Positions 376-19,141 of a stretch of DNA of 64,000 bases are shown in pieces. The stretch is taken from positions 1 through 64,000 of the IMG/VR virus record IMGVR_UViG_3300033233_000015. One strand, given 5' to 3'. Positions within the stretch are counted from its first letter, which is position 1. The number at the start of each line of letters is the position of its first letter. The stretch comes from a virus. Below the pieces are notes generated by a model that worked only from the letters and a program-made list of their open reading frames with translations, was not told where the DNA came from and made no database searches. Both the position numbers and the translations under genes were made by a program.

Positions 376-744
376 TTACCCGAGTGGCGTAGCGATCTCG
401 ACTACGCGTTGCCCGACACGGATGTCGTACATGCGAACGAAGCCGGCGTTCACCTCGAGCGCGTAACGCGATGGTCGCTCGATGCGTCGGAGCATCATGT
501 CGTGCGGTTGCATGTTCTCGAGGATGCCAACGATGACGAAGTCCTTGTCTAGGAAGATGATGTCGAGCGGGATGTACGTCTCGTACATCCAGAATGCGCG
601 ATCGGTGTCCGAGTTGAACACGAAGAGCATCCCGTGGTTCCACGGTAGTGAGGATCGATGTGAGAGACCTTTCGCATGCTCAACTGGTGTGCGTGCGAGC
701 TCGGCGGTGATCTCGAACGCGTTGAGGAGAAGATGCACGATCAC
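376..744 (-). CDS. DUF192 family protein
   Basis: AELARTP..HAKGLS.R..L....GMLFVF, FWM.ET.IPLDIIF.D and RYALEVNAG motifs. Confidence 0.9.
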   Translation of the reverse strand: MIVHLLLNAFEITAELARTPVEHAKGLSHRSSLPWNHGMLFVFNSDTDRAFWMYETYIPLDIIFLDKDFVIVGILENMQPHDMMLRRIERPSRYALEVNAGFVRMYDIRVGQRVVEIATPLG

Positions 745-1619
745 GAGAAGAGACTCGGATCGCCGAGGTACTCAAAATGCATCGTATCTCTCAAGCTTGA
801 ATCGCGACCGAGCCAGTAGAAACCGTATCGTTCGAAGGCGTGCACCCAGCACTCCGGCATCGCCATGCGTGAGTACGGGCCGGTGTCCGGCTGAGCACAA
901 ATCGGATCTTGTGCCCAGTGCCCGACGCATCCGCAACACGGGTTCAACGCCGGATCGATGTCGATCGCGATGCCGTAGACGTGATTGGAGACCTCGAAGT
1001 TGTGGTACGTGTTCGCCATGCGCAAGCCGGAGTACGCCTTGGGCTGGTACGGCGTCGCTGTGCAGTCTCTCTTGATGGCAGCTTCGACGCACTTGAGCGC
1101 GGGAATGATCCGACGGTTGAGCGTCACCGGAAGTCCGAAGAACGTGGTCTGCACCGCGTAGTACGAGGGCGGGTGTGCGTTGAGTGCCGAATCTCCAAAG
1201 CCGGGGAAGTACCCGTAGTTCTGTGTCCGGTAGTTCACGGCCTGCGTGAACATCGCTGGGTCCTTCAAGTAGTTCGCTCGGATGAGGAACGGTTGGGGAG
1301 ATTGCTCAGGACATCCAGCCAACGATGACGATGCAGCAGAAGCCTTCTTCGACGAGAAGAGTGCAAGGGCCACCGTCGCCAACGCAACACCACCGCCAAC
1401 AAGGAGTGCTGTCTTGGACGGTTTCGAGAGTGGGTTGCGTGCGAGCGCGAGATCAGGTTGGAGCTTGTAGCCTTCGTACTTGAGCGCATGCTCGACGCTG
1501 TAGCTGTGGTTGGCGTGGATGTACACCCACACCTCTTGCTCTGTGCCACGCAGCACAATCTTGCCGTCTCGCGACAGCACGTATCTGCCGGTCGGAGAAG
1601 AAATGTACGGGTAGCGCAT
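741..1619 (-). CDS. Membrane-anchored M15-family peptidoglycan peptidase with N-terminal module and NP linker
   Basis: SNHVYGIAID (SxHxxGxAxD) and DTMHFE motifs; TM segment follows ARNPLSK; ATG 1619 overlaps the upstream stop (TGATG). Confidence 0.85.
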   Translation of the reverse strand: MRYPYISSPTGRYVLSRDGKIVLRGTEQEVWVYIHANHSYSVEHALKYEGYKLQPDLALARNPLSKPSKTALLVGGGVALATVALALFSSKKASAASSSLAGCPEQSPQPFLIRANYLKDPAMFTQAVNYRTQNYGYFPGFGDSALNAHPPSYYAVQTTFFGLPVTLNRRIIPALKCVEAAIKRDCTATPYQPKAYSGLRMANTYHNFEVSNHVYGIAIDIDPALNPCCGCVGHWAQDPICAQPDTGPYSRMAMPECWVHAFERYGFYWLGRDSSLRDTMHFEYLGDPSLFS

Positions 1620-2587
1620 CACAACATCCTTGCTGCGATACCGACGGCCAGAAGACCGACGCCGGTGATGATCGCGGCCACGGCTGCTGCACGCGCGGAG
1701 TTTCGGCTCAAAGGATTGGGCGTAGCTTCGAGCCACTGCCGGCCTTCTGGTGTCAAAGCAAAGACGTTGACGAAGCCTCTGCCGATAGAGAGCACTTGAT
1801 GGCGAACGAACACGACGTAGCCGAACTTCTGTAGACGCATGATGGTTTGCTGCGCGCGTCGTCTCGTTGTGTCGGACACCTCGGTGCCGCGTTGTGCCGC
1901 CAACTGTTGTGCGAGGTCTGTTGTCGTGAACTCGCTCACAGGACCCATCATCTTGATGGCTTCACGCCACGCTTGCATCGTGCGTTCGAACTGCGGCATC
2001 ACTTGTACAACCGACGGAAGTGCTTCGAGCTCTACCCAGCGACGACCTTCTGCCGTCAACTTGAAGTACCCGCGCCGACCTTGGCCGAGTCCGCTCGGAC
2101 GCGTGGCGACGAATCGAATGTAGCCGCGACGCTCGAGGTCGCGCACAACACGTCCGGCTTGCATGACGCTCATCGAGAGCTTCTGTGCGAGCTGCTTCGT
2201 GGTGAAATGAGGTTTCTGCGAAAGCTCTCGAATCGCTCGATGCACTGCTTCGAGCTTGCCGCGAAGCATGCCCTTGAACTGCGACCTCAACCCGGATGGC
2301 AGAGCGAGCACTGTAGGTCCAGCAGGAAGAGCGAGCACAGGCTTGGGTGCAGGAAGTTGCGGCGCCATCCGCGAAGATCGCCAGATGTCCTCGATGATCT
2401 TCTTGCCGATGAGCACCGCTTGCGCTGGACCAGGCAGGTTGCAGATGATCTTGCCTTGAGCGTCAGGGTAGACGCGCGCGATCTCTCGCACGTCAAGACA
2501 CCAAGAGATGCGTTCGCGGTCAAACCAGATCGCGAACGGGACGTCCCGATGTTTGTAGTTGGCCAGCGTCCCCGGAACCGCAGACAT
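1619..2587 (-). CDS. Tandem winged-helix protein with C-terminal membrane anchor
   Basis: Two repeats of FTT..LAQ.L...L.R/K.GY..F....F.LT.EGR.W.E; ends PNPLSRN plus a hydrophobic helix. Confidence 0.7.
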   Translation of the reverse strand: MSAVPGTLANYKHRDVPFAIWFDRERISWCLDVREIARVYPDAQGKIICNLPGPAQAVLIGKKIIEDIWRSSRMAPQLPAPKPVLALPAGPTVLALPSGLRSQFKGMLRGKLEAVHRAIRELSQKPHFTTKQLAQKLSMSVMQAGRVVRDLERRGYIRFVATRPSGLGQGRRGYFKLTAEGRRWVELEALPSVVQVMPQFERTMQAWREAIKMMGPVSEFTTTDLAQQLAAQRGTEVSDTTRRRAQQTIMRLQKFGYVVFVRHQVLSIGRGFVNVFALTPEGRQWLEATPNPLSRNSARAAAVAAIITGVGLLAVGIAARML

Positions 2588-2590
2588 GGA

Positions 2591-3514
2591 TCAACCAGGG
2601 AAGTAGCGTGCGATGACGTTCGCTGTCTTCACAGCCGGAACCATCGGCGCGTGGTTGTAGTACGCGTGGATGTCCTTTCGATACACGTCGAGCGCTCGAT
2701 TGGCTTTCGCATCCGTGAAGTTGTGGCGGTAGACGAGCGCATCGAAGACGTCGTCGAAGTAGTGACGACGGCCGTAGTAGCTGCGTCCGGCGCTTGAACG
2801 AGGATTCTTACTCGTGCCGAGCGCCGTCCTCACGAGTTCACCACCACTCGCGATGTTGAGTGCTTCGGTGATCTCATCGTCAGGCATATTCATGCTCTTG
2901 AGGAACGCGATCTTGCTTCCGATGGCACCTGGTGCGTCACGCAGAATGAAGACTGCACGCTCGATACGACCCTCGCGCGTCGTGGCTGGGTGCTTGTACT
3001 CCGGCTTCTGAAGACGCGGATTCGGATCTCCTCGATGGTGCTTGTCCATCCACCCGCGAGGATGGAATCGAGCGGGAGCTCCGCAGATGCCACAAATGCG
3101 TTGCTGGTTGGTACCTGGGCGCACCGTCTGTTGATAGACGTGCTGTCGGTACCGCGTGCACTCGACGTCGTACTCACCCGGAGGAACGAGTCCGCGAGGG
3201 TTCTCCGTCATCTTGCGCGGGTGATCGATGGTGTGGGTGTGAGGTGCCAGATCGTGAACGAACTCGAGATCGGCGCCGATGTGCCAGTTGCCGCGCTTTT
3301 GAAAGAGCTTGCTGACGTAGTACCCACCGCTCACGGGCCCCTGGTAGATGCGAAATGTTGGACCGCCGCCCGAGATGTACGTGAACCCTCTCGATTTTGC
3401 TTCTTGGATCGCAGCGTCGTACGAATCCCAATCGCGCACCATCGGGTTCTCCTGAAGACCCTCGTAAGGGTCTGCCCAACTACATCCCGAGCAGGTCCAC
3501 GGGTTCGCGTTCAT
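2591..3514 (-). CDS. NP-linked multi-module protein; includes a Pex14-N-like helical module
   Basis: Start MNANP overlaps the upstream stop (ATGA); five NP motifs separate dissimilar segments. Confidence 0.7.
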   Translation of the reverse strand: MNANPWTCSGCSWADPYEGLQENPMVRDWDSYDAAIQEAKSRGFTYISGGGPTFRIYQGPVSGGYYVSKLFQKRGNWHIGADLEFVHDLAPHTHTIDHPRKMTENPRGLVPPGEYDVECTRYRQHVYQQTVRPGTNQQRICGICGAPARFHPRGWMDKHHRGDPNPRLQKPEYKHPATTREGRIERAVFILRDAPGAIGSKIAFLKSMNMPDDEITEALNIASGGELVRTALGTSKNPRSSAGRSYYGRRHYFDDVFDALVYRHNFTDAKANRALDVYRKDIHAYYNHAPMVPAVKTANVIARYFPG

Positions 3515-3804
3515 TCGCACGCCTCTTCTTCCTCTTCGTCCTCCTCGTCTTCGAACTCTTCTTCCTCGTCTTCGTATTCTTCTTCCTCGGGCGCAGAGCA
3601 TGGACCGACCTCGGCGCACTCGATCTCGAGATCGTAGCGATCCTCGGCCATGCCCGCGATCTCTTCCATGCAGCCGAGCATGTCCGAGACGTAGATCTGA
3701 ACCTGATGCGGGTTGTTGGCGGTGAGGGCCTTGTTCAAGCCCACCAAGTCCTCACGGACACGCCGCATGAACGCACGAATTTCGCCCTTGGTCGGCTTGC
3801 TCAT
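3511..3804 (-). CDS. Small protein with highly acidic C-terminus
   Basis: ORF preceded by CTGACG-N17-TAGGAT; E/D-rich tail. Confidence 0.7.
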   Translation of the reverse strand: MSKPTKGEIRAFMRRVREDLVGLNKALTANNPHQVQIYVSDMLGCMEEIAGMAEDRYDLEIECAEVGPCSAPEEEEYEDEEEEFEDEEDEEEEEACE

Positions 3805-3842
3805 CGTGAACCATCCTACCCCTGTTTGAATCGAGCGTCAGC

Positions 3843-4877
3843 CTACGTAAACTCGACGAAACCCGCGCGATCCACGATGTAGAACCGACCGCCTTTTTGG
3901 ACGATGTCTCCGACGCTCATGCTTGTGTGCTGAAGCCCGCGTGACGAGATGAAACCACGAGCCTCGCCGTGAGGGCTCCAGTTCTCACCCTGCATCATGC
4001 CAAAAATGGCTTCGAGATACGTTTCGGCGACTCGACCGATGCACACATGTGTCTTCTCGAGTGCTGCCGGGTCCGGCATCAGGTTCTTCTTCTTGAGCCA
4101 CTCGACGCCCATGTTGCCGTCGCCAAAGAACTCAGTACGCGCATACCAGATGCGCGTCGAACCAAGTGCGTAGGCGCCGACAGGTGTAGTTGCCCCGAAT
4201 TGAGTTTGGCCGTGGCCAGCCCACGCAGAACTCACGATCCTTTGAAGCTCTCCGTCTGCGCAGTCAGGAACTAGCCGCAAGACACCACCTTTCCCACGAA
4301 TCACGCGACGTGGGTTGGGTGAACGTCCTGGAAAGTCGGGCGGCGGCGCGTACTCCTGTTCGTGAATCAACCGTTGGCGTTCGTGCTTCGCGATCTGAAG
4401 TGCAAGCTCTTCGCGGATGGCCAGCGGGATGTACTGCTGAACGACGTCCTGCGCCGGCGACTGGCGATAGAACGTCGAGAGTGGCTTCCCCAAGATGAGC
4501 TCGTGCACGTACATTGCTGCGCCAAGATTCACCCACTCGATCCACAAATACGGCGCGAGGCGTGCGTCGTACGCGCGAGGATCAGCGAGGACGCGCTTCT
4601 TCAGATCGTAGAGCTCGCGGGTGTTGTCGATGTAGATCCAGAGATCATCGATCGCGTGCTCCTTGTCCCCGCCCCACCAATCCGACGGGTTCCGCGCCAT
4701 CCGGTACTCAGCAGGGAAGCTCCGGTAGCAGCCCTCGCAGACCGGCCCGATGTAAAGAATGCGGAAGTCGTCGAGCGCGTCGTTCGGACACGGTTTCCAT
4801 GCACGCGTATCGAGCGTGTCGCGCGAGCCGTCCGCGTGCGGCATCTTGCAAACAAGGCTCTCACAGTTGCAGCGCAT
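3843..4877 (-). CDS. NP-linked multi-module protein with C-terminal YodL-like domain
   Basis: HTSMSVGDIV...FYIVDRAGFVE matches the YodL signature; MARNP and RSPNP linkers; conserved motif directly before the ATG. Confidence 0.7.
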   Translation of the reverse strand: MRCNCESLVCKMPHADGSRDTLDTRAWKPCPNDALDDFRILYIGPVCEGCYRSFPAEYRMARNPSDWWGGDKEHAIDDLWIYIDNTRELYDLKKRVLADPRAYDARLAPYLWIEWVNLGAAMYVHELILGKPLSTFYRQSPAQDVVQQYIPLAIREELALQIAKHERQRLIHEQEYAPPPDFPGRSPNPRRVIRGKGGVLRLVPDCADGELQRIVSSAWAGHGQTQFGATTPVGAYALGSTRIWYARTEFFGDGNMGVEWLKKKNLMPDPAALEKTHVCIGRVAETYLEAIFGMMQGENWSPHGEARGFISSRGLQHTSMSVGDIVQKGGRFYIVDRAGFVEFT

Positions 4878-4900
4878 CCTTCGTGGCTCCCTTGTCGGTC
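4878..4900 (-). promoter_or_regulatory. Conserved upstream motif, copy 1 (GACCGACAAGGGAGCCACGAAGG)
   Basis: Immediately precedes ATG 4877; begins 6 nt downstream of the -10-like TACACT. Confidence 0.85.
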
Positions 4901-4929
4901 ACGACCAGTGTACGCTAACCCACACGCCG

Positions 4930-5712
4930 ATGAACCCGTTCCTTCCTTCGTGGATCTTCCAACAGCAGTACAAAGAAAGGGAAGCAGCACGCAAGCGAAT
5001 GCTTGCGACGCCGTCGGAGCCGTGGACACCGGACATCAAGTGGAAGCCGGTCTTGCACATCCAGGTCGAGAGCTACCGCTGGTTCGTGCGTGATCTTTTC
5101 CCCGAAGCCACTGAGGTGCTGCCGGGTGAAGATTTCGCTCGTCATAAGTGCATGGTGCTCTCGCCGTCCGGTCGCTTCTGCTACGCGAAGAAGATCCTGC
5201 CTCCGAACGGCATGCTCGCAACGTTGTCGGGTCGCAAGCATGGGCACGTATTCTTCGACGCACCGGTGATGATCCCGATGCTCTTCGAACGCAAGCAATC
5301 AGGAGAACGGTTCTACGATTTCCCGGAAGAGCCGTGGATGAGCCTCACACCGATGGAGCTCTTCTCGCTTCGTCCCGGCACGAAGCTGACGAAGGGCCAC
5401 ACGGTTATCGCTGGGCTCGGGCTCGGTCACCAGCTCATCGAAGTCAGCCATCGCCCAACTGTTCGCGCGATCACGCTCGTCGAGAAAAATCCTGAGCTTG
5501 TGAGTTGGCTTCTTCCGCGAATCCGAACGCACATGGACCCGCGTGTGCCGCTTCGTGTGATCGTAGGAAGCGCTTACGACATCGTGCCGCAGCTCACCGC
5601 TGACGTTGCACTCATCGACATCTTCCCGCGCTACGGTGGCAACCGAGAGACCTGGCGTTACAAGACGCGCGGATGTCCCGCCATCGGCCGAGTTTGGGTG
5701 TGGGGTGGGTGA
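4930..5712 (+). CDS. SAM-dependent methyltransferase / spermidine-synthase-like protein
   Basis: WMSLTPME, VIAGLGLG, TLVEKNPEL and ALIDIF Rossmann motifs; start at 4930 is inferred. Confidence 0.65.
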   Translation: MNPFLPSWIFQQQYKEREAARKRMLATPSEPWTPDIKWKPVLHIQVESYRWFVRDLFPEATEVLPGEDFARHKCMVLSPSGRFCYAKKILPPNGMLATLSGRKHGHVFFDAPVMIPMLFERKQSGERFYDFPEEPWMSLTPMELFSLRPGTKLTKGHTVIAGLGLGHQLIEVSHRPTVRAITLVEKNPELVSWLLPRIRTHMDPRVPLRVIVGSAYDIVPQLTADVALIDIFPRYGGNRETWRYKTRGCPAIGRVWVWGG

Positions 5713-5747
5713 GGACAGCAGGGCCGTGACCAGGTAGAGTCGTTCGT

Positions 5748-7496: not shown

Positions 7497-8126
7497 GTGA
7501 ACGTTGTTCCGCTCTTCAGGAACCCGAAGCGTGACCCTTTCAAGGTGCTCGAGGCGCTGGCGCGCGTTTCGTGGGACGTCTTCAGTCAGTGCTACAAGCC
7601 GGACTGCTGCATCGCTGCGACCAAAGTAGGGATCGAAGCGCTCAAACCGTTCGGGATCGCAGGCAGACCGATGCCGACACGCACGATGGCAGCCAACGCG
7701 GCGTACTGGCTCTACGTGGAAGGCAAGGTTCCTGAACCCGACTCGACTGCACGCGTCCTCATTATCGATGACACGTGCGACGACGGTACGGGGTACCCGG
7801 GCCACCTCGTCATCGTCGGCAAGGTGAAGGGCATCCCATTTCTCTTGGATCTGTCGGCTGTGCAGCTCGATCGACCTCACAAGGAGATCCACGTCCCGCC
7901 CGAAGGACTCCTCATCTTTTTGCCGCCGACGTTCGAGTTCAAGGGCACGTGGGCTGTTCCCGTCATCAATCCCCGAGGCGGTGCGATCCTCTACGCTCCT
8001 CATCCGAACCCACCGGATTACACGACGGCGTCGGACTGGTATCTTCGAACACCGTGGCACCACGCGACTTTTACGCGAATGCGTGATGAGCTGATCGAAG
8101 CCACGCGACAGGAGCTCGGTGAGTAA
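7497..8126 (+). CDS. Putative transglutaminase/papain-like (Cys-His-Asp) protein
   Basis: CCIAAT...GHLVIV...LLDLS..Q spacing typical of the fold. Confidence 0.45.
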   Translation: MNVVPLFRNPKRDPFKVLEALARVSWDVFSQCYKPDCCIAATKVGIEALKPFGIAGRPMPTRTMAANAAYWLYVEGKVPEPDSTARVLIIDDTCDDGTGYPGHLVIVGKVKGIPFLLDLSAVQLDRPHKEIHVPPEGLLIFLPPTFEFKGTWAVPVINPRGGAILYAPHPNPPDYTTASDWYLRTPWHHATFTRMRDELIEATRQELGE

Positions 8127-9909
8127 CGTGGAAACTGCAACCATTCTCGAGACCCACCAGGATGCATCCGAAGCCAAGCCAGGGCTCTACGTCGTGCACT
8201 CGGGAAGCCCGGCTTACTTTCCGGTGATGGGGTTCATCGAGGAGGGTCACGCGAAGCTTGTCGGCGAGTTCTACGACGATCGAGGACGTGTTGTGACCGT
8301 GGATGTTACGTCCAAGCCGGCGGTGTACATCGCGAACCCCGAGCCGACGAAGCACATGATCTCGATCGGGCCGGAGTTCTTCATCACGGCCCTCAAGGAC
8401 TACACCGATTGGCCCATCAAGTGGTGGCGCGAAGCCGTGCAGAACGCTGTCGACGCCGGCGGGACGAACATCACGCTCGGATCGGTCAAGCACGAGGACG
8501 GTACCGTCACAGTCTTCTGTGACGACGACGGCAGTGGCATGGACGAGGACACCATCATCAACAAGTTCCTCGTCCTCGGTGCGACGACCAAGATTGGAGC
8601 GAGTGGAGCTGCGGGCGGGTTCGGCAAAGCCAAGGAGCTCCTCCTCTTGCCTTGGGTTGCGTGGCGTATTCACTCACGCGACACGCTCATCCAAGGCGCA
8701 GGCATCGACTACACGCTCATTCGCACAGCATTTCGCCAAGGAACACGGCTCGAAGTCGTGATGCCGCCCGACAAGACCACCGACGGCGCCATCGCGCTCG
8801 GTTTTCTCCAGAAGTGCTACCTGCCGAACGTGAACTTCACGGTCAACGGTGTACCAGCTCGAGCTGATCTCGCGGGTGGCAACGTCATCGACAGCGTACC
8901 GGACAAGGCAGAGATCTACTTCATCCCCGCGAACGACAAGCAGTCGTATCTCTACGTTCGTACGCGTGGTCTCTACATGTTCTCGAGCTACGTCGGACCC
9001 ATCCCGGGATTTCTTGTCGCAGAGCTTCTCGCGCCTTCGATCGAGATCCTGACGGCCAACCGTGACGGGTTCCGTGATCGGTACGTGGCCATGGCGGTGG
9101 ATCGCCTCGGTGAGCGCATCGCGAAGGACAACATAAGCGCTCTTCGCGCCGGTAAGGGCCTTATCCGCAAGAAGTACGAAGGCACGGGCAAGTTTCGCTC
9201 GCGTGAACGAGCTTCTGAACTTCTCGAGCGCATCGGGCCCTACAGCTCGGGGCTTCTCAAGGAGCAGGACGCGCAGACCATCGTGGCTACGATCGGTGAC
9301 TACGCGCGTCGGGAAGAAGCAACACTAGCGTCACTTCCGTCGGCGCCTGTTGCAGCGGCCATGCTCGATCAGAAATTCCTTGGCCCGAACCACCTCGAAG
9401 CTGCGATCAAGCAGCTCGTGTGGGAGCCAGACTTCTACCTGATGAACGACATCGAGGGCTACTTCGTCCCGAAGAAGTTTTTCCCGGAGACGATGACGCC
9501 AACTGTTCTCAAGCTCGCCAAGGTGTGGGCCGAGCTCTGTCGCTACGTCCTCATGCAGCTCGGCACCGATCGTCGCTTCGGTGTGGGCTTCATCTTCTCT
9601 GAGGAGGTGGCTGCCGCAGCCGTGGAAGAGGAAGGACGTGATGAACGTGTCGAGCCATGGCTAATGGTCAACCCGTTCAAGGACATGCACAAGCGTGATG
9701 AGATGTGGCGCACAACCGATGCCGATCTCAAGTGGCTCTACGCGGCTGCGATCCACGAATCAACACACATCGCCGATCGCATCAGCTACCACGACGAGAG
9801 CTTTGCTGCGGCGCTCACGCGCAACGTGGCCAAGTGTGCGGACGGGTATCGCAAGATCAAGCAGATCGCTGGAGGCATCCGCATGCGTGGCGCACCGGAG
9901 CTCGACTGA
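8119..9909 (+). CDS. GHKL (HATPase) ATPase fused to a C-terminal HExxH zincin-like domain
   Basis: REAVQNAVDAG, DDDGSGMD, GGFGKAK and GT boxes; AIHESTH...HDESF. Confidence 0.8.
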   Translation: MSNVETATILETHQDASEAKPGLYVVHSGSPAYFPVMGFIEEGHAKLVGEFYDDRGRVVTVDVTSKPAVYIANPEPTKHMISIGPEFFITALKDYTDWPIKWWREAVQNAVDAGGTNITLGSVKHEDGTVTVFCDDDGSGMDEDTIINKFLVLGATTKIGASGAAGGFGKAKELLLLPWVAWRIHSRDTLIQGAGIDYTLIRTAFRQGTRLEVVMPPDKTTDGAIALGFLQKCYLPNVNFTVNGVPARADLAGGNVIDSVPDKAEIYFIPANDKQSYLYVRTRGLYMFSSYVGPIPGFLVAELLAPSIEILTANRDGFRDRYVAMAVDRLGERIAKDNISALRAGKGLIRKKYEGTGKFRSRERASELLERIGPYSSGLLKEQDAQTIVATIGDYARREEATLASLPSAPVAAAMLDQKFLGPNHLEAAIKQLVWEPDFYLMNDIEGYFVPKKFFPETMTPTVLKLAKVWAELCRYVLMQLGTDRRFGVGFIFSEEVAAAAVEEEGRDERVEPWLMVNPFKDMHKRDEMWRTTDADLKWLYAAAIHESTHIADRISYHDESFAAALTRNVAKCADGYRKIKQIAGGIRMRGAPELD

Positions 9910-11345
9910 TGGGCTGGGCGCTCACCAACACTGTCAGTAGCGGGCATCGCTACCGCTTCGTTGTTCAGCAGCCGACAACGGTGGGCGGTGCGTGGGGCGA
10001 TGTTCAGAGTGCGCTGCAAACGGACTGGGGCTTCGGCTACGTCGGCAACGATGTCACTCTCCAGCAAGTCGGTTCGAGCAATCTGTGGGTAGGAGAAGCC
10101 ATCCCGAACTCCGGGGTGGGATGGACACCAGCAACGGTTGCTGCGCAGTCGCAGAGCGTGAAGAACGGCTTCACGTACCTCGCGATAGCCGTGCAAGCGC
10201 GCGACGACCTCACGAGGCTTGTTCACAAGGGATCGACCTACAGCTTCGACGTTCGTGTGCCTTCGGCGTGGACCGTCAGCCAGGTGATGACCTACTTGCA
10301 AGGCAAAGGCTGGAACGTCGCGTCGGTCGTTCCAACCTCTGATGCCGTCAGCCTTCTTGCGGGTAGGGTCAACAGCATCGCGAAGACGATCGCGTTTGCG
10401 ATCACGGGCACGTGGAACGGCGCCGACAAGACGTCTATCGCGGATTCGGATGGAACGATCAGCTACGGGATCTTCTCGAGCCAAGCGCCGGTCTCCATCG
10501 CGGGTACGACACCGGCGGTAGGAGCAGCATCCTCTAGCAATGCGACGCCGTGGCTCATCGCTCTCGGGCTCGTAGGCGTAGCGGGGCTTGGTCTCTTCGC
10601 CTTCACTCGTAGCAAGGCGAAACAGAATCCGTCTTCGCCGATCTACTTCGACGATCTGCCACTCGAGGAGCGTCAACGACACGCACAATTGTGGCGCGCG
10701 TCGATCGCGAAACTTCGCGAGTTGTCGTACCCGTTCCAAGCAACGTTCGACGGCGAGCGCGTCACTGTGCTCGGTCGCGTACGAGATTTCGAGCCCTACA
10801 CAAGTCATCCATGCCAGCAAGCTGAAGCTACCGACGAATCGATGATGGTTCGTGGATCGGATGGCAATAAGTTCATCGTCTTCGGCCACAGCTTGTTTGT
10901 CGGCGACCAACGCCTCGTGTACCAATCCGGCTACCGTCGCCGTCCTGTAGTTGATCCTTTGGGACTAGGGTGGAAAGAGAATCCTATCGGCGTCTTCATC
11001 TACGACCTCGACGCGCTCGACAAGCTCGCGGAGCTCGAAGGTGCACACTGGCTCGAAGACGACCGTCGCATGTGGCAGCAGTACCGCAGCGGAAACACGG
11101 CGCACGCGTTTCAATTCGCGTGGTGGCACACGCACAAGCCAGGTGTCCTCGAGCCACAAGATCTTCCGTACTGGAAAGAGTATTTCGCTGGTGACATGGG
11201 CATCGAGCTCGGCGTCATCTACGGCGACGGTGGCTACGCGCGCTTCGCAGTGACCGACGAAGGTGAAATCGTGCTCGAAGGCAACACGACGCGTGCGGAG
11301 AAGATCGAACGCGCTGCCCAGCTTGGGTTTCGAGTTGTGCGATGA
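9909..11345 (+). CDS. NP-linked modular membrane protein
   Basis: ATG overlaps the upstream stop; N-terminal domain, TM, then modules after AKQNP and WKENP. Confidence 0.7.
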   Translation: MGWALTNTVSSGHRYRFVVQQPTTVGGAWGDVQSALQTDWGFGYVGNDVTLQQVGSSNLWVGEAIPNSGVGWTPATVAAQSQSVKNGFTYLAIAVQARDDLTRLVHKGSTYSFDVRVPSAWTVSQVMTYLQGKGWNVASVVPTSDAVSLLAGRVNSIAKTIAFAITGTWNGADKTSIADSDGTISYGIFSSQAPVSIAGTTPAVGAASSSNATPWLIALGLVGVAGLGLFAFTRSKAKQNPSSPIYFDDLPLEERQRHAQLWRASIAKLRELSYPFQATFDGERVTVLGRVRDFEPYTSHPCQQAEATDESMMVRGSDGNKFIVFGHSLFVGDQRLVYQSGYRRRPVVDPLGLGWKENPIGVFIYDLDALDKLAELEGAHWLEDDRRMWQQYRSGNTAHAFQFAWWHTHKPGVLEPQDLPYWKEYFAGDMGIELGVIYGDGGYARFAVTDEGEIVLEGNTTRAEKIERAAQLGFRVVR

Positions 11346-11698: not shown

Positions 11699-13351
11699 AT
11701 GACCGCCGATCAGGCTTCCATCCTCGCAGCAGGTCTCGGTCACGGCCGCCTTCACGCGTACGTCAAGAGCGGACGGATCGTGTTTACGGGCGGTCAGAGT
11801 GATCACTCGCTAGACATCGCAGCTTCTACCGAAGCACGCGTCCGTGCGCATTGGGACGGCTACGTCGAAAATAACGCTAAGTTTCTAGCCTCATCGGCAG
11901 CCATCGAACGGTTGCGTGCACGCGTCGAGCGTGAAGCCAAACGCTTGCGGGACAAAGAGTGGAGCTTGCCCGATGCCATGCGTGCGGCGCGTGTGAAGGC
12001 AGCTTTCGACACGTTCGACGATGTGTACTGGCGGCTTGAGGCCGTTCCAGACGAGGATCTATACGACGACAGCCACATCGACGATCCGCAAGAGAAGAAA
12101 AACTTGTGGAATCGCATCGAGAGCGAAGGTGTGTGGGGTATCAAATCGTCTTGGCGTCTGAGCGAAGACCCTGTTTACGATCCACCGAGCTCGAAGCACC
12201 ACGGGAAGCTCATCATGAGCGCGAAGTGGGAGGAAGCAGACGCTACGTGGGGCTTCGTTGGAGATGAATGGAAGGACTCAGGTTACGACACCGATCTCAG
12301 ACGTGCTGCAATGCACGCGTTTCTGGAAGCAGCCGGCGCTATTCCACTCACTCAAGTACCCGAAGATGCACTCGCTGATTTTTGGTTCGCTGTCGAGATC
12401 GCGCGCTTCGCGACGCGTTCAGATGCAGCGGTTCAAGAAGCGGACGCCAAGGGCATTATCCTTCTGTCTGTCGGCGGCGCTGTGCCCAAGTCTTCGTCTG
12501 TGCCGCCACCGATAGTTCCAACACGTGCGCCGCACTTCGCATCGAAGCACACGTTTCAGATCCGCCAGGACGTGTACGCTGGATGGAACGTCCTGCGCTT
12601 CGAGCAACCTCCGTTTGGGCCGGCTCAAGTAGAGAGGATGACGTCGCAGCTCGAGCCTCGCAAAGAAGCGCTCAACGTCGCCAAGAGCTACGCGCTCGAT
12701 CTCGCGCAACGCATGCAACCGAACCCGAACGCGATCCGTGTGCTCGATGAGCAAGGTGTGTGCGTCTACGCCGTGAAATCGACGGCTGCCGGACCACTCG
12801 AAGTGCCATGCCCTCCATCCGATCTCGATCGACCGGCTGTGCCGCGTCAGTACAACCCTCGATCGAATCCGCTCTCGCGCAACGCACAGACTGCTATCAC
12901 GATCAGTCTAGTGTTGGGAGGTTTCGGTGCTGTCGTGTGGCTGCTTCGCAGGCATTACAATGCGCCAGTAGCATCGGCGTCGATTCCATCGACTCCATCA
13001 GCACTGCCAAAGCACACAAGCAACGATTGCAGGCCCGACGACTGGTTGAGCGGTGCGTGGCAAGCTCTTGATTCTGACATCGTGACGCTGCAACACGGCA
13101 AGCTTTACTGGTTTGAAGTCTTCGATCGTAACGGCACACTCTCACAAGCCACCATCCGAAATGTTCTCACCGCAGGTGGTTGGAACATCCGAACAGGACC
13201 AACCTCACGCCCCGGTTTCCTGACCAAGCTCGAGTGGGTGGTCACAGCATTCTGGACCGGACCCACAACAACGACAGCGCGATACACGGACCTGACAAAC
13301 TTGGGCTTGGAGACCAACTACGGCAGCTTCTACCTCTGCATCTACTCCTGA
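11699..13351 (+). CDS. Large modular membrane protein (NP linker before TM)
   Basis: Leaderless-type start (TAGGCT-N6-ATG); YNPRSNPLSRNAQTA plus TM; shares modules with the 14242 and 9909 proteins. Confidence 0.7.
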   Translation: MTADQASILAAGLGHGRLHAYVKSGRIVFTGGQSDHSLDIAASTEARVRAHWDGYVENNAKFLASSAAIERLRARVEREAKRLRDKEWSLPDAMRAARVKAAFDTFDDVYWRLEAVPDEDLYDDSHIDDPQEKKNLWNRIESEGVWGIKSSWRLSEDPVYDPPSSKHHGKLIMSAKWEEADATWGFVGDEWKDSGYDTDLRRAAMHAFLEAAGAIPLTQVPEDALADFWFAVEIARFATRSDAAVQEADAKGIILLSVGGAVPKSSSVPPPIVPTRAPHFASKHTFQIRQDVYAGWNVLRFEQPPFGPAQVERMTSQLEPRKEALNVAKSYALDLAQRMQPNPNAIRVLDEQGVCVYAVKSTAAGPLEVPCPPSDLDRPAVPRQYNPRSNPLSRNAQTAITISLVLGGFGAVVWLLRRHYNAPVASASIPSTPSALPKHTSNDCRPDDWLSGAWQALDSDIVTLQHGKLYWFEVFDRNGTLSQATIRNVLTAGGWNIRTGPTSRPGFLTKLEWVVTAFWTGPTTTTARYTDLTNLGLETNYGSFYLCIYS

Positions 13352-13360: not shown

Positions 13361-13636
13361 ATGCGCCAACATCGCGTTCGAGCCGGTGACTCTCCCGTCG
13401 AGATCGCCATCCAGTACACAGGCTGTCCGAAGTGCGCACGTGATCTCGTGCTTGTGAACCCGCAGAAGGCTCGCGTGACGTATCCGAACGGCTTCATCAC
13501 GTTCCGTGAGCTCTACGATGGCGAAGTGCTCAACCTGCCGAACAAGTGGTTCGACGGCACGAACTTCGACGAGGACAAGAGTTCATGGCCATGGCCACCG
13601 GGTTGGGATGAAAACTGGCAGCAGCACCGTCGCTAG
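13361..13636 (+). CDS. Stand-alone LysM-like CPKC domain protein
   Basis: Highly similar to the first ~90 aa of the 5748 protein; GAGGA SD. Confidence 0.8.
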   Translation: MRQHRVRAGDSPVEIAIQYTGCPKCARDLVLVNPQKARVTYPNGFITFRELYDGEVLNLPNKWFDGTNFDEDKSSWPWPPGWDENWQQHRR

Positions 13637-13637
13637 C

Positions 13638-14240: not shown

Positions 14241-14241
14241 A

Positions 14242-15063
14242 TCACGTGCACGGGATCTCGGTCCACCACGGTACGGATCGACCGGCGAGTTTGCCCCATC
14301 GAGGATCGCTGGAACCTGTTCTCCATGTGGGCTGCACAGCATAGAGACACGCTCCACGTTCATCGAGCACACGCACCGCGTTCGGATTGTTCAACTGCCG
14401 ACTGGCGATGTACTGCGCGTGGTGCATTGCCCACTCAAGTGCCTGCCCGCGTGATCCGAACGCGAACTGCACCTTCGAGTGTGCAGGTTTTCCTGTGTAG
14501 AACGGATCATCGATCGTCGAGTTGCGCACGAGCTCGACAACGAGCCATCGACCAGAGCGTTTGTCCTGCACGAGCTTGTACTCGTAGACAGGGAAGCTTG
14601 CACTCGTCGGCGTGTATGGATTGCGTACCGGACGCGTGCGGATCGTCGGCTTGTTTCTGTCGACTTGTGCTTCTACGTAGCCACGCCGATAGCCTTCGTA
14701 CCAGATGGTCACGAGTCGCAGATCAGGTGATGACCGTTCGATCTGGAAATCAGCGGGGTTCTCGTTGAGGCGTCCGTTGCGCCCAGCTTCGTATCCACGA
14801 TGATAGGCGTGCTGGATGACGTCGAGAGCGATGGGTGTACTGTTCCACGTGTAGATCCACGAACCGCGTCGACGTTGTGCATCTCCGAGCCACGTCACGA
14901 ACCGCACGTTCGACGAGTTCGTTGGGTTCTTGTGCTGGAGCTTGTCGAAAGCGTTGGCCGCAACCCACACCACAGCCACTCCAGCAGCGAACGATCCGGT
15001 AACAGCAAGCAGAACTGTCCAAGCAGGCCACGGATCACTCGGCGGCAGCGTCAAGTCGCTCAT
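14242..15063 (-). CDS. NP-linked modular membrane protein with an RMF-like motif
   Basis: N-terminal TM; HKNP and VRNP linkers; AYHRGYEAG...NP...WYEGYRRG. Confidence 0.65.
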   Translation of the reverse strand: MSDLTLPPSDPWPAWTVLLAVTGSFAAGVAVVWVAANAFDKLQHKNPTNSSNVRFVTWLGDAQRRRGSWIYTWNSTPIALDVIQHAYHRGYEAGRNGRLNENPADFQIERSSPDLRLVTIWYEGYRRGYVEAQVDRNKPTIRTRPVRNPYTPTSASFPVYEYKLVQDKRSGRWLVVELVRNSTIDDPFYTGKPAHSKVQFAFGSRGQALEWAMHHAQYIASRQLNNPNAVRVLDERGACLYAVQPTWRTGSSDPRWGKLAGRSVPWWTEIPCT

Positions 15064-15065
15064 GA

Positions 15066-15509
15066 TCACCCCTCGTGGAGCGCGATACCTGCTGCAAGCC
15101 GTCGATTCATCACGCCGAGGCGTCGTGCAGCCACACGCGGCGAGACCATCGGGAACCATCCGACGACGGCTTCGTCGAAGTCATCCACGATGATGAGTGC
15201 GTCCTCGATGTCGAACCCGAAGTTCACGAGATCGCTGACGATGAACGCAACGTAGCGACTCAATTTGAAGAGCGACCGCGTCGGCTTCTGCATCGGTACG
15301 CGCGACTGGAACATCTTGAGGAACTCTTGCGCGAGCTGTTTACTCGGCGTGCCCTCGATCCATTCGTCGAAGATGAATTGTCCGTAGCCGTCGATGATCT
15401 GCTGAACCTGAGTGGTAGGCAGTCCTTGGCTCTCGAGCTGTCTCACGACTTTGTTCACGTACTCCACGATGTCCGTGAGCGTGTATTCCTCGTCACCAAA
15501 GACCGACAT
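15066..15509 (-). CDS. Hypothetical protein
   Basis: ORF with GAGGGAG SD before ATG 15509. Confidence 0.6.
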   Translation of the reverse strand: MSVFGDEEYTLTDIVEYVNKVVRQLESQGLPTTQVQQIIDGYGQFIFDEWIEGTPSKQLAQEFLKMFQSRVPMQKPTRSLFKLSRYVAFIVSDLVNFGFDIEDALIIVDDFDEAVVGWFPMVSPRVAARRLGVMNRRLAAGIALHEG

Positions 15510-15555
15510 GGACAACTCCCTCACCAGGTCAGGTGCAACGAAGGCTAAAGCTACA

Positions 15556-15575
15556 CCTTCGTGGCTCCCTTGTCG
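15556..15575 (-). promoter_or_regulatory. Conserved upstream motif, copy 3
   Basis: CGACAAGGGAGCCACGAAGG running into GTG-TAG (start-stop), ~45 nt upstream of the next gene. Confidence 0.8.
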
Positions 15576-15584
15576 TTCCTAGCG

Positions 15585-16175
15585 TCAGCTTCGAATAGCC
15601 TGCCAGATTTGCTGTGCCCAGCCGCTATACGACGATGGGTGAACTCCATCACTCGACAGCGGCACTGTTGCTGCCGGTACAACATCGACGCCAAGTGATT
15701 CGATGAGTGCGCGCACGCCAATCATCGGGTGCGCAGGCATGATCGGCGGTTGTACCCACACGATGCGTGCGCCGGTTGCGCGCAGACGATCGCGGAACTG
15801 CTCGTACGGACCACGTGGCGGCGCTGGTGAGTAGCCAAGATCGTTGGTGCCGAGCACGACGATTATGAGGGTTGGCGCGTAGGCTTCGAGCCAATCGGCC
15901 CACCTGTTGTCCACCCACTGCTTGACGGTAGTTCCTGCTTTTGCTTCGTAGCGAAAGCGCGCCAACATGCCGCTGTCACTCTGCGTAACGAGCTTCTGGA
16001 GATGCGGTGCGAGACCCACGGCGAGACTGTCGCCGATGAGCGCGACACGCATGGGAACAACAGTTGTACTCGTTGAAGGCTCACCGCTCTTTCGTGCGAG
16101 TAGGTAGCCGAGAAAGATGACGATCCCGCTTGCCGTACCGAGAAGCGCTGCGCGGCGAACGGTTCGCGACATCAT
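15585..16175 (-). CDS. Membrane-anchored SGNH/GDSL hydrolase
   Basis: IGDSL, LGTND and DGVHP blocks; N-terminal TM. Confidence 0.9.
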   Translation of the reverse strand: MMSRTVRRAALLGTASGIVIFLGYLLARKSGEPSTSTTVVPMRVALIGDSLAVGLAPHLQKLVTQSDSGMLARFRYEAKAGTTVKQWVDNRWADWLEAYAPTLIIVVLGTNDLGYSPAPPRGPYEQFRDRLRATGARIVWVQPPIMPAHPMIGVRALIESLGVDVVPAATVPLSSDGVHPSSYSGWAQQIWQAIRS

Positions 16176-16648
16176 GGCTTGCGTTGCTTGTAGAAATTCT
16201 TGACCGACTCGACGACAGCGTGCGGGTTGATGCCGTTGACGAAGATCTCCCAGCGATCTTCCACTTCGTCCTTGTCGTTACGCGGTACCCACACTTGATC
16301 GGTGAAATTGAACGGCGCAAACCCGCCAATGATGGCGCCACTGTAGTGAGCGGTGTCGAGCAGGAATGACACGCCGCCCTTTTCACCGTCACGGTGCTCC
16401 GAAAGCGCGATGTGGATCGAGACGTCGACGAGATCCGTGTCACCTGTCGTGCGTGCACCCGCCTCTGCGGCTGGCGGATAGACGTTGAGCTCCCAAGTAG
16501 GCTCTGCGTCATGATGATCGAACGGTCCTTCGACCATGAAGTCTTGTGCTTGGAACGCTTCGCCGATGCTTGTGAGCAGCCGAACGATCTTGGGCTCGTA
16601 CTTGTGTACCAGCTTGTCGACGCGGTCCTTGTCTTCGATGTACGTCAT
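16172..16648 (-). CDS. Hypothetical protein
   Basis: ORF from ATG 16648 with GAGG SD; coupled to the downstream gene. Confidence 0.6.
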   Translation of the reverse strand: MTYIEDKDRVDKLVHKYEPKIVRLLTSIGEAFQAQDFMVEGPFDHHDAEPTWELNVYPPAAEAGARTTGDTDLVDVSIHIALSEHRDGEKGGVSFLLDTAHYSGAIIGGFAPFNFTDQVWVPRNDKDEVEDRWEIFVNGINPHAVVESVKNFYKQRKP

Positions 16649-16683
16649 GGTGCCTCGTGCTTCGTGGAGAGTATCATCGAGTT

Positions 16684-16700
16684 CGACAAGGGAGCCACGA
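16684..16700 (+). promoter_or_regulatory. Conserved upstream motif, copy 4
   Basis: CGACAAGGGAGCCACGA directly before ATG 16701; begins 6 nt after the -10-like TATCAT. Confidence 0.85.
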
Positions 16701-16946
16701 ATGGACGCCCTGCATCTAGTTGAGGAACTTGTCACCCGTGAGGCTCGCGGTAGTGCAAAGCTGCCTCATATTTTCTGCGATACGCGCGCAGCGTACGAGA
16801 GCGAAGAAGAGTTTCAAGCATTCATCGCGAGCATGTGTGAAGCCGCGACGGAGCGCGGCTTTTATGCACGCATCGTTGCATCGTACATCTGCGACGATGG
16901 TGATCTATGGGATGTCGCGATCCATCTCGATCGACTTCTCGCTTGA
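16701..16946 (+). CDS. Hypothetical protein (81 aa)
   Basis: ATG follows the conserved motif. Confidence 0.6.
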   Translation: MDALHLVEELVTREARGSAKLPHIFCDTRAAYESEEEFQAFIASMCEAATERGFYARIVASYICDDGDLWDVAIHLDRLLA

Positions 16947-16975
16947 CTTACCAAACTTGGTGATAGGCTCGTTGC

Positions 16976-17599
16976 ATGCACAGCGCTCTCGCTCACGTCG
17001 CGCACGATCCGATCAGCCCCTTCACCTTCGACTACCGAGGCACCAAGACGGTGATCTCGAAGGCTAGAGGACGCTGGTGTTACGGGCACAGTGGCGGTCG
17101 TGGGAAACGATGCGCACCGACGTTTCGCCAAGCCGTCATCTTGGCCAAGCATGCCGTCGATGCACGTCACCAGTACGGCCACGAGAATCCTGCCACTCCA
17201 GCCACGGAGAACTCGGGCGGAGGAGGCGTCCTTCTCGCTCTCGTCGCAGCAGCTCTCGCCGGTGGCGGCGTGTACCTCTACATGAGGCACAACGCGAACA
17301 CGGCAGCCATCACCGATCCCGCGCAGATCATCATGGCGAAGATCAACCTCGAGCAGGTAGCCGGGAACCCCAGTCTTCACTTCACGTACAAGCGCGATCA
17401 ACCGATGACGTCTGCGACGCCGGCGTTCGCACAGGGCCTCTCACAATTTCAGGTCGCATTCAATCGCTTGGTGACGCCGGACAAGCTTGCTGATCTTCAG
17501 AAAGATTTGGGCCAGGCGAAGTTGCCTGCGTTTCCGCTTCGCACTGACGGCGTGCTCGATCGACCGACGTTCGACTGGCTCATCTACGCGCAGGGCTAG
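16976..17599 (+). CDS. NP-linked membrane protein with a peptidoglycan-binding-like C-terminal motif
   Basis: TG-n-TAGGCT-N6-ATG; GHENP then TM; FQ..FN...L.TDGVLD..T. Confidence 0.6.
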   Translation: MHSALAHVAHDPISPFTFDYRGTKTVISKARGRWCYGHSGGRGKRCAPTFRQAVILAKHAVDARHQYGHENPATPATENSGGGGVLLALVAAALAGGGVYLYMRHNANTAAITDPAQIIMAKINLEQVAGNPSLHFTYKRDQPMTSATPAFAQGLSQFQVAFNRLVTPDKLADLQKDLGQAKLPAFPLRTDGVLDRPTFDWLIYAQG

Positions 17600-17602
17600 T
17601 TC

Positions 17603-18250
17603 GTGAAGTCGTCACCGACAGCGAGCTTCGCGGCAGCTACCTATCCGCTTCCTCCTAACCGTGCCGGCATTGCCGGCAACCATCAGGAGGGATCGCTTAT
17701 TATCGGTGGGCAACCGACGATTCAGATTGCAGTAGCCGATCCCCCTTTCGACCTCATGGGCGTTGTCATTTCTCCCTTGGGGCTTGGCGATTTTTTCGCC
17801 GAGGTCGCCGCGTATTTCTACGCGAACTTCGGCCAGGCGTCGGCAGCTCGGTTTCAGCTCATCGGGATTCAGGGCGGGCTCACAATCAATGGCGCCGATC
17901 CGGCCGTCGGATTTTACCAGGCGCAACCGGATGGTGGGAATCCGCCGATTCAGCCCATCGTTCTTGGCGCAACGACGCGGATTTTGCTCGATACGGGTGG
18001 GCATCTTCCCGCCCCGACCTTCCCGCTCGTAGAGTCGATCAGCATGGCGGCGCTTCCGGCTTTCAACGAGACACGCAGTTTCGCTCCCGTAGGTTCGCCG
18101 CCTGTTGCCAACCAAAATAACTTCCCCGTCGCAAACGGCAAGGTGTGGTTCGGGCTTCGAATCGTCTCCGTTACTGGAACGGACATCGTATTTGGGCCCA
18201 GCCCCATCGACGGTCCCATCGGGACGATCTTCGCGCAGGAGATTGGTTAG
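17603..18250 (+). CDS. Hypothetical Pro/Gly-rich, beta-rich protein (possible virion protein)
   Basis: ORF composition only. Confidence 0.5.
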   Translation: MKSSPTASFAAATYPLPPNRAGIAGNHQEGSLIIGGQPTIQIAVADPPFDLMGVVISPLGLGDFFAEVAAYFYANFGQASAARFQLIGIQGGLTINGADPAVGFYQAQPDGGNPPIQPIVLGATTRILLDTGGHLPAPTFPLVESISMAALPAFNETRSFAPVGSPPVANQNNFPVANGKVWFGLRIVSVTGTDIVFGPSPIDGPIGTIFAQEIG

Positions 18251-18286
18251 ATGGTCGACACGACAGACACTCCCGCGTAACGGTTG

Positions 18287-18502
18287 ATGGCAGCTCATCG
18301 AACTTCCATGGAGCACACGAGCACTGCTCTACTTCTCCTCGAGTGGGACAACAACCAATGTCGTCTCTGCGGCGGAACGCGTCCGAACCACGAGATCGGT
18401 TGCGTCATCGATCACGCGCTCGCTGAACGTGGTCTCGACACGCAGAAGAACCGCGACAGCGCGCGAAAACTCATCGAGCTGACGCCGCCAATCGTTCGCT
18501 GA
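18287..18502 (+). CDS. Small Cys/His-containing hypothetical protein
   Basis: CRLC...H..GC pattern. Confidence 0.5.
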   Translation: MAAHRTSMEHTSTALLLLEWDNNQCRLCGGTRPNHEIGCVIDHALAERGLDTQKNRDSARKLIELTPPIVR

Positions 18503-18529
18503 TACCATCAAGGCACACGAAGGCGAGTC

Positions 18530-19141
18530 ATGAGCAAGAAGAAGAAATACAACCCGGAGAAGAGAACCTGGCGCGGTAAGTCCTACAAGAAGGGTGGGAA
18601 GCGTGTGCGGGACATCCGTACGAAGCTTCAAGCCAAAAGCATCAGCGAGGACTTCCACCATCGCGAAACACTCTCATTCAACTCGCTCGAGCTCTTCGAG
18701 AACCCGATCCTCTTCGAGAACCCCATCTCGGATGGAGCCAAGATGGCGATCGGAGCGGGTGTAGTCGCAGCGCTCGGTCTCGGAGCGTACTTTCTGTTCA
18801 AGCCCGCGACGGCTGCATCACCTTCGACTTCGGCGTCAACGACACCCTCATCGAGGCCGCTTGCCGAACCTGTGCATGATCGCGCTGAGCCACCGCCTCC
18901 TCCTTCTATCGTTGGTGGTTCGATCAACGATCGGTACATCTACGCCGCTGTGCAGATGTGGAACGGTACTACTTGGCAGCCCGTCGAAGAGGGTTGGATG
19001 CTGACATCGCACGCCCGCGCGATTCAGAGCAGCGTCGGCCATGCATTCTGGTTGTACTGGGACTTCTGGCGACCAGCACCCGTCAACGATTGGCACAGCG
19101 TCAAGACGCCGCCGGATGGACAACTCGACATCGCCATCTAG
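18530..19141 (+). CDS. Basic N-terminus, duplicated LFENP linker, TM and Trp-rich domain
   Basis: ELFENPILFENPISDGAKMAIG plus TM; ctcttcgagaaccc repeated at DNA level. Confidence 0.7.
   Translation: MSKKKKYNPEKRTWRGKSYKKGGKRVRDIRTKLQAKSISEDFHHRETLSFNSLELFENPILFENPISDGAKMAIGAGVVAALGLGAYFLFKPATAASPSTSASTTPSSRPLAEPVHDRAEPPPPPSIVGGSINDRYIYAAVQMWNGTTWQPVEEGWMLTSHARAIQSSVGHAFWLYWDFWRPAPVNDWHSVKTPPDGQLDIAI

Follow-up and report, generated by a model that had tools for sequence, protein, structure and literature searches.

Polymorphic toxins carry the junction motifs VENN (in CdiA) and PxxxxDPxGL (in Rhs proteins), short conserved peptides placed where interchangeable modules of fast-evolving conflict proteins join. 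Here we describe a comparable use of the dipeptide Asn-Pro (NP) in a virus. The window analyzed is the first 64 kb of the 110,081-bp IMG/VR virus record IMGVR_UViG_3300033233_000015, complete according to CheckV, for which gene calling by a codon-score method trained on the record returned 179 genes with 94% coding; the block under study is 1 to 19.2 kb, with 25 proteins and 6254 amino acids. NP is enriched in this block at the protein level, and the enrichment is replicated in relatives, biased in position, conserved in homologs, and coincident with the starts of shuffled homology blocks. Each toxin motif divides a single constant region from a single variable tip, has greater length, and has DNA homology or a defined autoprotease behind it, whereas the motif in the block is centered on a dipeptide and occurs in many copies among small cytoplasmic or membrane-tethered viral proteins.

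The polyvalent proteins of phages and conjugative elements, many of them very large, likewise string unrelated small domains together in proteins of mobile elements and show extensive domain shuffling, whereas the proteins of the block are 200 to 550 residues long and many have a membrane anchor. A polyvalent protein has between 2 and 15 domains, and certain hallmark domains, the MPTase peptidase among them, keep recurring; processing by an embedded zincin-like peptidase has been proposed (Iyer et al. 2017, PMC5512222). No linker motif is described there, and the word 'linker' occurs 0 times (PMC5512222). No hallmark domain (MPTase zincin, YodL, RadC, or others) was detected by Pfam in the open reading frames (ORFs) of 1 to 20 kb at E ≤ 0.01-0.1; YodL and RadC, which had been invoked in a sequence-only reading of this DNA, were found in no ORF of the block.

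Asn-Pro is also the scissile dipeptide of RsgI, where NP lies in the turn between β1 and β2 of the periplasmic RsgI-PD fold (PMC10328401), and of FlhB, which self-cleaves at NPTH and whose homolog YscU typifies family N6 (PMC3207474); the cleavage of reovirus μ1 after Asn42 is treated as being of the same kind (PMC10328401). In both RsgI and FlhB, which are membrane proteins, signaling is controlled by a cut made close to the membrane. The known autocleavage takes place at one site in a dedicated fold, whereas the block has dozens of sites in unrelated contexts, mostly predicted linkers that probably face the cytoplasm. NPTH, the N6 motif (four-strand sheet plus four helices), is absent from the whole genome and from the two closest related loci (L002 and L011). 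NPGP, the core of the motif D-x-E-x-NPGP of 2A-like ribosome-skipping peptides, is absent as well. To our knowledge there is no described system with this NP motif, although no literature search was aimed at it. Conceptually it comes closest to the polymorphic-toxin junction motifs and to polyvalent proteins with their strings of domains, from both of which the block differs in scale, in membrane tethering, and in the many-fold repetition of a dipeptide-centered motif.

An excess of Asn-Pro in one accessory gene block

The proteins of the block contain 37 NP dipeptides against 13.1 expected from each protein's own Asn and Pro content (observed over expected, O/E, 2.8), a count reached by none of 2000 within-protein shuffles, and NP ranks first in over-representation among the 293 testable dipeptides. 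The Poisson p value is 5e-8, and 6e-5 against a baseline O/E of 1.38, the generic NP bias in a sample of 42 E. coli proteins. NP-bearing proteins number 18 of 25 (9.7 expected), and Pro follows 19% of Asn residues in the block versus 7% elsewhere. The remaining genome contains 54 NPs against 47.4 expected (O/E 1.14); the replication and repair genes at 19.2 to 55 kb have 24 against 13.6 (O/E 1.76), and the structural half of the genome is at or below 1. The excess is thereby confirmed, including in the direct comparison of 1 to 19 kb with 19 to 55 kb, and all NP sites from which the sequence-only reading had proposed a processing or sorting code were found in the genes to which it assigned them. 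Ser-Pro, Thr-Pro, and Asp-Pro are not enriched in the block, and the NP excess is therefore not a general helix-cap or Pro effect; helix N-capping was set aside on these flat counts and on the location of most NPs, 5 to 15 residues ahead of the first helix or strand. Paralogy was also rejected as the cause, because the block holds only two paralogous pairs, which account for little of the excess.

A metagenome scan with the GHKL ATPase of the block gave 11 loci, with contigs of 47 kb and 246 kb read as 21-kb loci. The two closest carry the same kind of accessory genes as the block and replicate the excess, with 41 NPs against 17.0 expected in L002 (GHKL protein 85% identical) and 40 against 12.4 in L011 (75% identical, from the 246-kb contig; O/E 3.2, p 2e-6 against the 1.38 baseline). 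The majority of the L011 sites lie in proteins that are not orthologous to those of the window. L003 and L005 have kept the GHKL gene among different neighbors and show no NP excess nearby, and approximately 120 wider M15 peptidase homologs from other sources have an O/E of 0.86. Because L002 and L011 replicate the excess and these other sets do not, it is a property of this accessory gene pool and not of the sample or of GC-rich viruses generally. Homologs of <80% identity keep NP in 79% of the aligned cases, where ∼35% would be expected for an average dipeptide.

These counts bear on the possibility that NP has no dedicated function, and that ordinary Asn-Pro turns, loop ends, and helix starts, a few domain families that conserve NP, and post hoc selection together produce the pattern. 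We regard this as unlikely but a serious contender. NP is generically over-represented, as the E. coli baseline shows, and the replication and repair genes are mildly enriched too, yet the block and L011 both exceed that baseline and the other Xaa-Pro dipeptides named above stay flat. One repeat-domain family supplies about 18 of the 40 NPs of L011 but 3 of the 37 of the block. NPs inside domains do occur, and a global test of block starts (below) is weak; set against this are a concentration of NP near N termini and membrane helices that would be unexpected for generic turns, and the restriction of all NP[LIVM]S motifs to this block.

At the nucleotide level, AAYCC occurs 37 times in sense frame 0 and 3 times in each of the other two frames, and it tracks gene orientation on both DNA strands. 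The NP sites are encoded by eight different hexamers, in agreement with the earlier observation that codons differ between copies. A nucleic-acid signal, with AAYCC selected in mRNA or DNA and in frame only through the tolerance of codons rich in G or C at the third position (GC3), retains very little probability. At 70% GC3, AAYCC suits common codons in frame 0 only, so frame specificity alone cannot exclude such a signal; against it stand the dependence on gene orientation on both strands, flank preferences that hold at the amino-acid level, a Pro third base that follows general usage, and the conservation of NP in homologs despite differing codons. AAT is in surplus before Pro throughout the genome, as a codon-pair effect; on this ground a special role of AAT at NP was ruled out, and a DNA motif as the cause is disfavored by this generic effect together with the sense-frame restriction of AAYCC. 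Across the whole genome, T-ending codons for Asn, Asp, Tyr, Phe, Ile, and His are 2 to 5 times commoner directly before Pro codons than in other positions, a strong bias.

Position of Asn-Pro relative to modules and membrane helices

Alignment of the pooled sites from the window and L011 (n = 80) reveals R/K at positions -4 and -2, E (3.6-fold), R, K, or P at -1, and, after NP, any residue, then S/T (2.7-fold), then P; the consensus is [R/K/E]-N-P-x-[S/T]-(P). Of 55 proteins, 11 have an NP among their first 10 residues, compared with 5 of the 153 proteins encoded elsewhere in the genome, with M-R-R-N-P, M-F-D-D-E-N-P, and V-N-x-x-P-x-x-R-N-P as examples. It lies ≤16 residues from 7 of the 13 predicted membrane helices of the block versus 1 of 32 elsewhere (Fisher p 2.6e-4), and L011 has NP within 16 residues of 5 of 9. 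Four NP[LI]S motifs (in the proteins starting at 741, 1619, 11699, and 18530; proteins are named by their first coordinate) are each followed at about 8 residues by a Gly/Ala-rich predicted membrane helix, as the sequence-only reading had stated, and 12 of 12 NP[LIVM]S motifs in the genome, L002, and L011 together are inside this gene block. Regions upstream of NP are slightly more disorder-prone than background (p 0.02-0.045); downstream regions are not. The proteins concerned are as follows.

741..1619, minus strand: 292-residue protein with a 60-residue N-terminal module, NPLS (1431-1436), a predicted membrane helix (residues 70-88), and an M15 peptidase domain
1619..2587, minus strand: 322-residue tail-anchored winged-helix protein, with NPLS (1712-1717) 8 residues before a C-terminal helix (residues 300-318)
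2591..3514, minus strand: 307-residue protein with five NPs (residues 4, 23, 105, 165, and 237) and three or more modules found singly in other proteins
3843..4877, minus strand: 344-residue protein with ARNP (residue 63) and SPNP (residue 188), both kept in the one diverged homolog
7497..8126, plus strand: 209-residue protein whose module starts at NP9
8119..9909, plus strand: 596-residue GHKL ATPase (Pfam HATPase_c_3) with a C-terminal HExxH motif
9909..11345, plus strand: 478-residue protein with an N-terminal domain, a predicted membrane helix (residues 215-233), KQNP (residue 240), and a C-terminal module
11699..13351, plus strand: 550-residue protein with at least four modules, NP342 in a repeat-type domain, YNPRSNPLS (residues 386-393), and a predicted membrane helix (residues 398-416)
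14242..15063, minus strand: 273-residue protein with a predicted membrane helix, NP46, a β3-α unit, an RMF-like helical pair with NP102, a linker with NP148, and a ∼100-residue domain with NP226
16976..17599, plus strand: 207-residue protein with HENP (residue 71) 13 residues before a predicted membrane helix (residues 85-103)
18530..19141, plus strand: 203-residue protein with NP at residue 8 and FENP at residues 58 and 64, the second being NPIS before a predicted membrane helix (residues 72-90)
19643..20089, minus strand: 148-residue protein with three NPs, by which the enriched zone runs slightly past the end that the sequence-only reading had given it

Several unrelated domains on one polypeptide, as polyvalent proteins have, are present in the 14242, 11699 (at least four), and 2591 (at least three) proteins. 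The description of the block as short multi-module proteins, many tethered by one membrane helix, holds, and the modules are recombined in relatives. In about six unrelated module families, NP stands at the start of homology blocks that are met in differing architectures. These families are the module of the 7497 protein, a domain starting NPYTP (at least six copies), the 9909 protein's C-terminal module, two modules from the 2591 protein, and the NP[LI]S membrane-helix anchor. The 7497 module is free-standing here and forms the C-terminal half of a 403-residue protein in L011, with homology running from KKNPK at residue 201. The C-terminal module of the 9909 protein has a copy behind a different N-terminal domain in L011 (16937-18037), and the shared block starts at KQNP. 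The 2591 protein has the blocks after NP23 and after NP237, its first and last modules, in common with P0002, and its middle block recurs in P0003, there followed by NP and a membrane helix.

The helix-adjacent motif behaves similarly. In the 741 protein, NPLS separates the N-terminal module from the helix and the peptidase domain (Pfam Peptidase_M15_4, E 1.3e-13), which contains a second NP (939-944). In close M15 homologs that have no N-terminal module, the protein opens with the helix itself (M...K-T-A-L) and NP is missing; the homolog P0170, with an upstream M23 domain, has E-N-P-I-S-K-P ahead of the helix. Homologs of the 11699 protein of 41-59% identity retain NP[LMI]S ahead of the helix, and the NP of the 1619 protein is kept in the one homolog of <80% identity. 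The 1619 protein has Pfam MarR/HTH matches and a PHROG match to a transcriptional regulator; its two winged-helix (MarR-like) units and C-terminal membrane helix are the architecture of a membrane-sequestered transcription regulator. The module map of the 11699 protein was derived from 214 matches. Its residues 74-213 (11918-12337, plus strand) match many stand-alone proteins of ∼140 residues, to which the majority of the 214 cluster representatives for the whole protein (E ≤ 0.001) belong; because this module matches no Pfam family, it is placed in a widespread uncharacterized small-protein family.

A new domain family of ∼100 residues, with the order strand-strand-strand-helix-hairpin, occurs at 14299-14631 (minus strand), at 12536-12805 (plus strand), and in L011 at 16946-21050, where three copies stand in tandem at 18034-19245. 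Many copies begin N-P-Y-T-P and all end N-P-N-x-x-R-V-L-D-E-x-G-x-C; the domain gave no Pfam match and no clear fold match.

AlphaFold models place some of these sites in three dimensions. In the 14242 model (mean predicted local distance difference test score, pLDDT, 72), the membrane helix ends at residue 43 with NP46 just after it, NP148 sits in a low-confidence linker, 10 residues ahead of the C-terminal domain's first strand, and NP226 lies in a confident helix-to-strand loop within that domain; NP46 and NP148 are in low-confidence linkers ahead of structured elements, and NP226 is inside a domain. In the 2591 model (mean pLDDT 44), all five NPs have pLDDT <50 and lie 5 to 15 residues ahead of predicted helices. 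Residues 77-136 of the 14242 protein match Pfam RMF (PF04957) at E 7e-4 and 20 bits, under the cut-off of 27.9; the top VIA match of this segment is RMF itself (4v8g_AV, Z 6.3, 2.0 Å root mean square deviation over 52 of 53 residues, 25% identity), and Foldseek pairs it with 2jrm and 9iot at probability 0.91-0.97. The model therefore suggests an RMF fold over the whole length of the segment, which we call only RMF-like because the Z score is middling. The protein may be a tethered mimic of ribosome hibernation. With the whole model, Foldseek returned no match against the PDB at E ≤ 0.001, and fold searches listed no RsgI domain, which such lists may miss.

The claim that NP marks apparent boundaries between modules therefore stands in part. 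It is upheld at NP23 and NP237 of the 2591 protein, NP46 and NP148 of the 14242 protein, NP240 of the 9909 protein, NP9 of the 7497 protein, and the helix-adjacent sites. It fails for IANP, taken as a boundary before the GHKL domain of the 8119 protein, which is kept in one of six homologs. NPs inside domains, which the sequence-only reading did not list, are NP102 and NP226 of the 14242 protein, NP342 of the 11699 protein, and the family-conserved NP518 of the 8119 protein.

A Met lies ≤6 residues upstream of 23 of 94 internal NPs (9.8 expected), with M-T-E-N-P at two unrelated junctions and M-A-R-N-P as examples. The window contains six of these Mets, all of them without an upstream Shine-Dalgarno sequence, and they are therefore not present-day internal translation starts, which we had considered; the pattern fits former start codons kept after fusion.

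Punctuation or processing

We tentatively favor, at somewhat short of an even chance, the reading that NP is the core of a lineage-specific punctuation motif for module starts that is carried along by fusion and shuffling. The motif would mark the N-terminal edge of small modules in the accessory gene block of the virus and of the two relatives closest to it, and a Gly/Ala-rich single membrane helix would be one such module. The edge would stay with its module through gene fusion, splitting, and recombination, which would explain why the motif is met after the initiator Met, at internal junctions, and beside membrane anchors. The Asn-Pro turn may close a flexible leader or linker and insulate the next module, such that new combinations still fold, and NP may also be recognized by a viral or host factor; most sites are probably uncleaved. 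We infer this insulating or recognition role, and the history of fusion, from the pattern of sites.

A number of observations weigh against this punctuation reading. The dipeptide and the region were picked after inspecting the sequence. When all BLAST block starts were taken without supervision, 16 were within 8 residues of an NP versus 10.5 expected, a result that is only mildly positive and in which many "starts" are truncated weak alignments. Some module boundaries have no NP (in the 11699 protein, at about residues 65-74 and 213-260), and some conserved NPs are inside domains, namely the NPN loop of the repeat domain, the NPF before HExxH in the 8119 protein, and NP102 of the 14242 protein; others are not conserved (NP73 of the 8119 protein, NP158 and NP171 of the 7497 protein). 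Homologous copies inflate the count of upstream Mets, and the AlphaFold models cover two proteins (14242 and 2591), of which the second is poorly modeled. Lastly, an insulating turn alone does not account for the use of Asn-Pro over Ser-, Thr-, or Asp-Pro, which leaves room for a specific reader or protease.

Two proteins in the middle of the block are candidates for such a protease. The 7497 protein has a Cys/His/Asp pattern, and its nearest ESM Atlas clusters carry DUF2026 and Transglut_core3, each in 20% of members; no Pfam or PDB sequence match was found for it. From these patterns it may be a transglutaminase-fold Cys protease, which we offer as a lead. The 8119 protein belongs to a viral family of unknown function that extends to 1113 residues in L008-L010. 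The GHKL ATPase is fused to a C-terminal domain, whose motif A-A-A-I-H-E-x-T-H...Y-H-D-E-S-F is invariant across all 11 related loci, down to 44% identity, and W-L-M-L-N-P-F precedes HExxH in every homolog over the same range; the HExxH region gave no Pfam peptidase match.

As the sequence-only reading had suggested, with a packaging tag as the alternative, NP could be a proteolytic site, cut by a viral protease (the 7497 candidate or the HExxH of the 8119 protein) or by self-cleavage at Asn, and cutting would strip short N-terminal leaders, part modules, and free modules from their membrane tethers. We consider this fairly improbable. The motif is conserved in otherwise variable linkers, has preferred flanks (E, R, or K at -1 and S/T two residues after Pro), and ends short N-terminal leaders that look like cleaved targeting peptides; two candidate proteases are at hand, one with an invariant HExxH. 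However, neither candidate is tied to NP. L003 and L005 keep the GHKL-HExxH gene with no NP excess around it. Autocleavage at Asn-Pro is established elsewhere, in RsgI and at NPTH of FlhB, and cutting by embedded metallopeptidases has been proposed for polyvalent phage proteins (PMC5512222), but known Asn-Pro self-cleavage requires a dedicated fold, the contexts here are unrelated, and NPTH and NPGP are absent. Several conserved NPs are in buried loops of folded domains. Three L011 proteins have 5 residues before NP, so that cleavage would release nothing useful, and likewise the 11 of 55 proteins with NP in their first 10 residues have nothing upstream to release. A uniform cleavage code is hard to reconcile with leaders this short and with NPs that are buried.

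In the most specific form of this proposal, [R/K/E]-N-P-x-[S/T] would be a virus-specific processing and sorting code, cut by the 7497 or 8119 protein or by Asn itself, which strips leaders and releases small effectors; these could include the RMF-like ribosome silencer and the winged-helix regulator, freed from tethers on the cytoplasmic face of the membrane at a set time of infection. We think this rather doubtful. As for known sorting signals, no sortase B signal of the form NP(Q/K)T(N/G/S), such as NPQTN or NPKTG, is present; in secreted proteins such a signal stands at the extreme C terminus, ahead of a membrane helix and a basic tail. The geometry of a C-terminal sorting signal is seen in the 1619 protein only, a winged-helix protein in which no N-terminal hydrophobic segment was seen by eye, no signal-peptide predictor having been run; the remaining NP sites are N-terminal or internal. 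The capsid-targeting sequences of T4 internal proteins end in L/I-x-E, and class III (prepilin) signal peptides are cut between G and F. Like the N-terminal NP leaders, these are 5 to 10 residues ending in a conserved motif, which in prepilins is just before a hydrophobic helix, whereas the block motif has another consensus, occurs in internal copies too, lies 7 to 9 residues from the helix, and has no identified cognate peptidase.

The statistics and the comparative pattern are solid. Even as mere punctuation, NP would offer a simple rule, readable from sequence, by which dozens of hypothetical proteins from an uncharted lineage of viruses could be divided into functional modules, and the case documents unusually free shuffling of modules within small membrane-tethered viral proteins. 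Were NP instead to serve in processing or docking, a bacterial virus would have a new system built on a short linear motif, for which the substrates are obvious and two enzymes are candidates.

Genome context and relatives

Pfam matches in 1 to 20 kb are sparse and consist of M15 and M23 peptidase domains, DUF192, the double winged-helix protein, a GDSL hydrolase, and the GHKL ATPase. Megablast of 1 to 20 kb against phage and plasmid collections gave no match, as did IMG/VR scans with the GHKL protein and a degenerate DNA pattern for NPN...RVLDE..G.C, and a scan of GTDB genome contigs with P0156 returned no relative. Pfam detected no terminase, portal, or capsid/major-capsid family in ten of the large ORFs at ∼61 to 109 kb, and the virion module is unlike those of known tailed phages. 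The Pfam matches of this half (60908-62341; L013, L014, and L015) are LysM with Big_3_5, M23, and Prim-Pol, and the Prim-Pol gene is at the far end of the genome.

The closest named homologs of the M15 domain in 741-1619 (minus strand) are annotated as proteins of metagenome-assembled genomes of Polyangiales and Myxococcota, and the sole sequencing run containing the GHKL gene is a sediment metagenome. The annotations and the sediment run hint at a myxobacterial host, which is only a lead.

Beyond the block lie the genes for replication and DNA modification:

20-55 kb: an intein-bearing helicase, an RNA ligase, a PD-(D/E)XK nuclease, an AAA_24 protein, two methylases, ParB, and a PAPS reductase

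The helicase (RecD/UvrD-like; 21590-23863, minus strand) is split by an intein that carries an HNH endonuclease (Pfam matches Intein_splicing and HNH_3).

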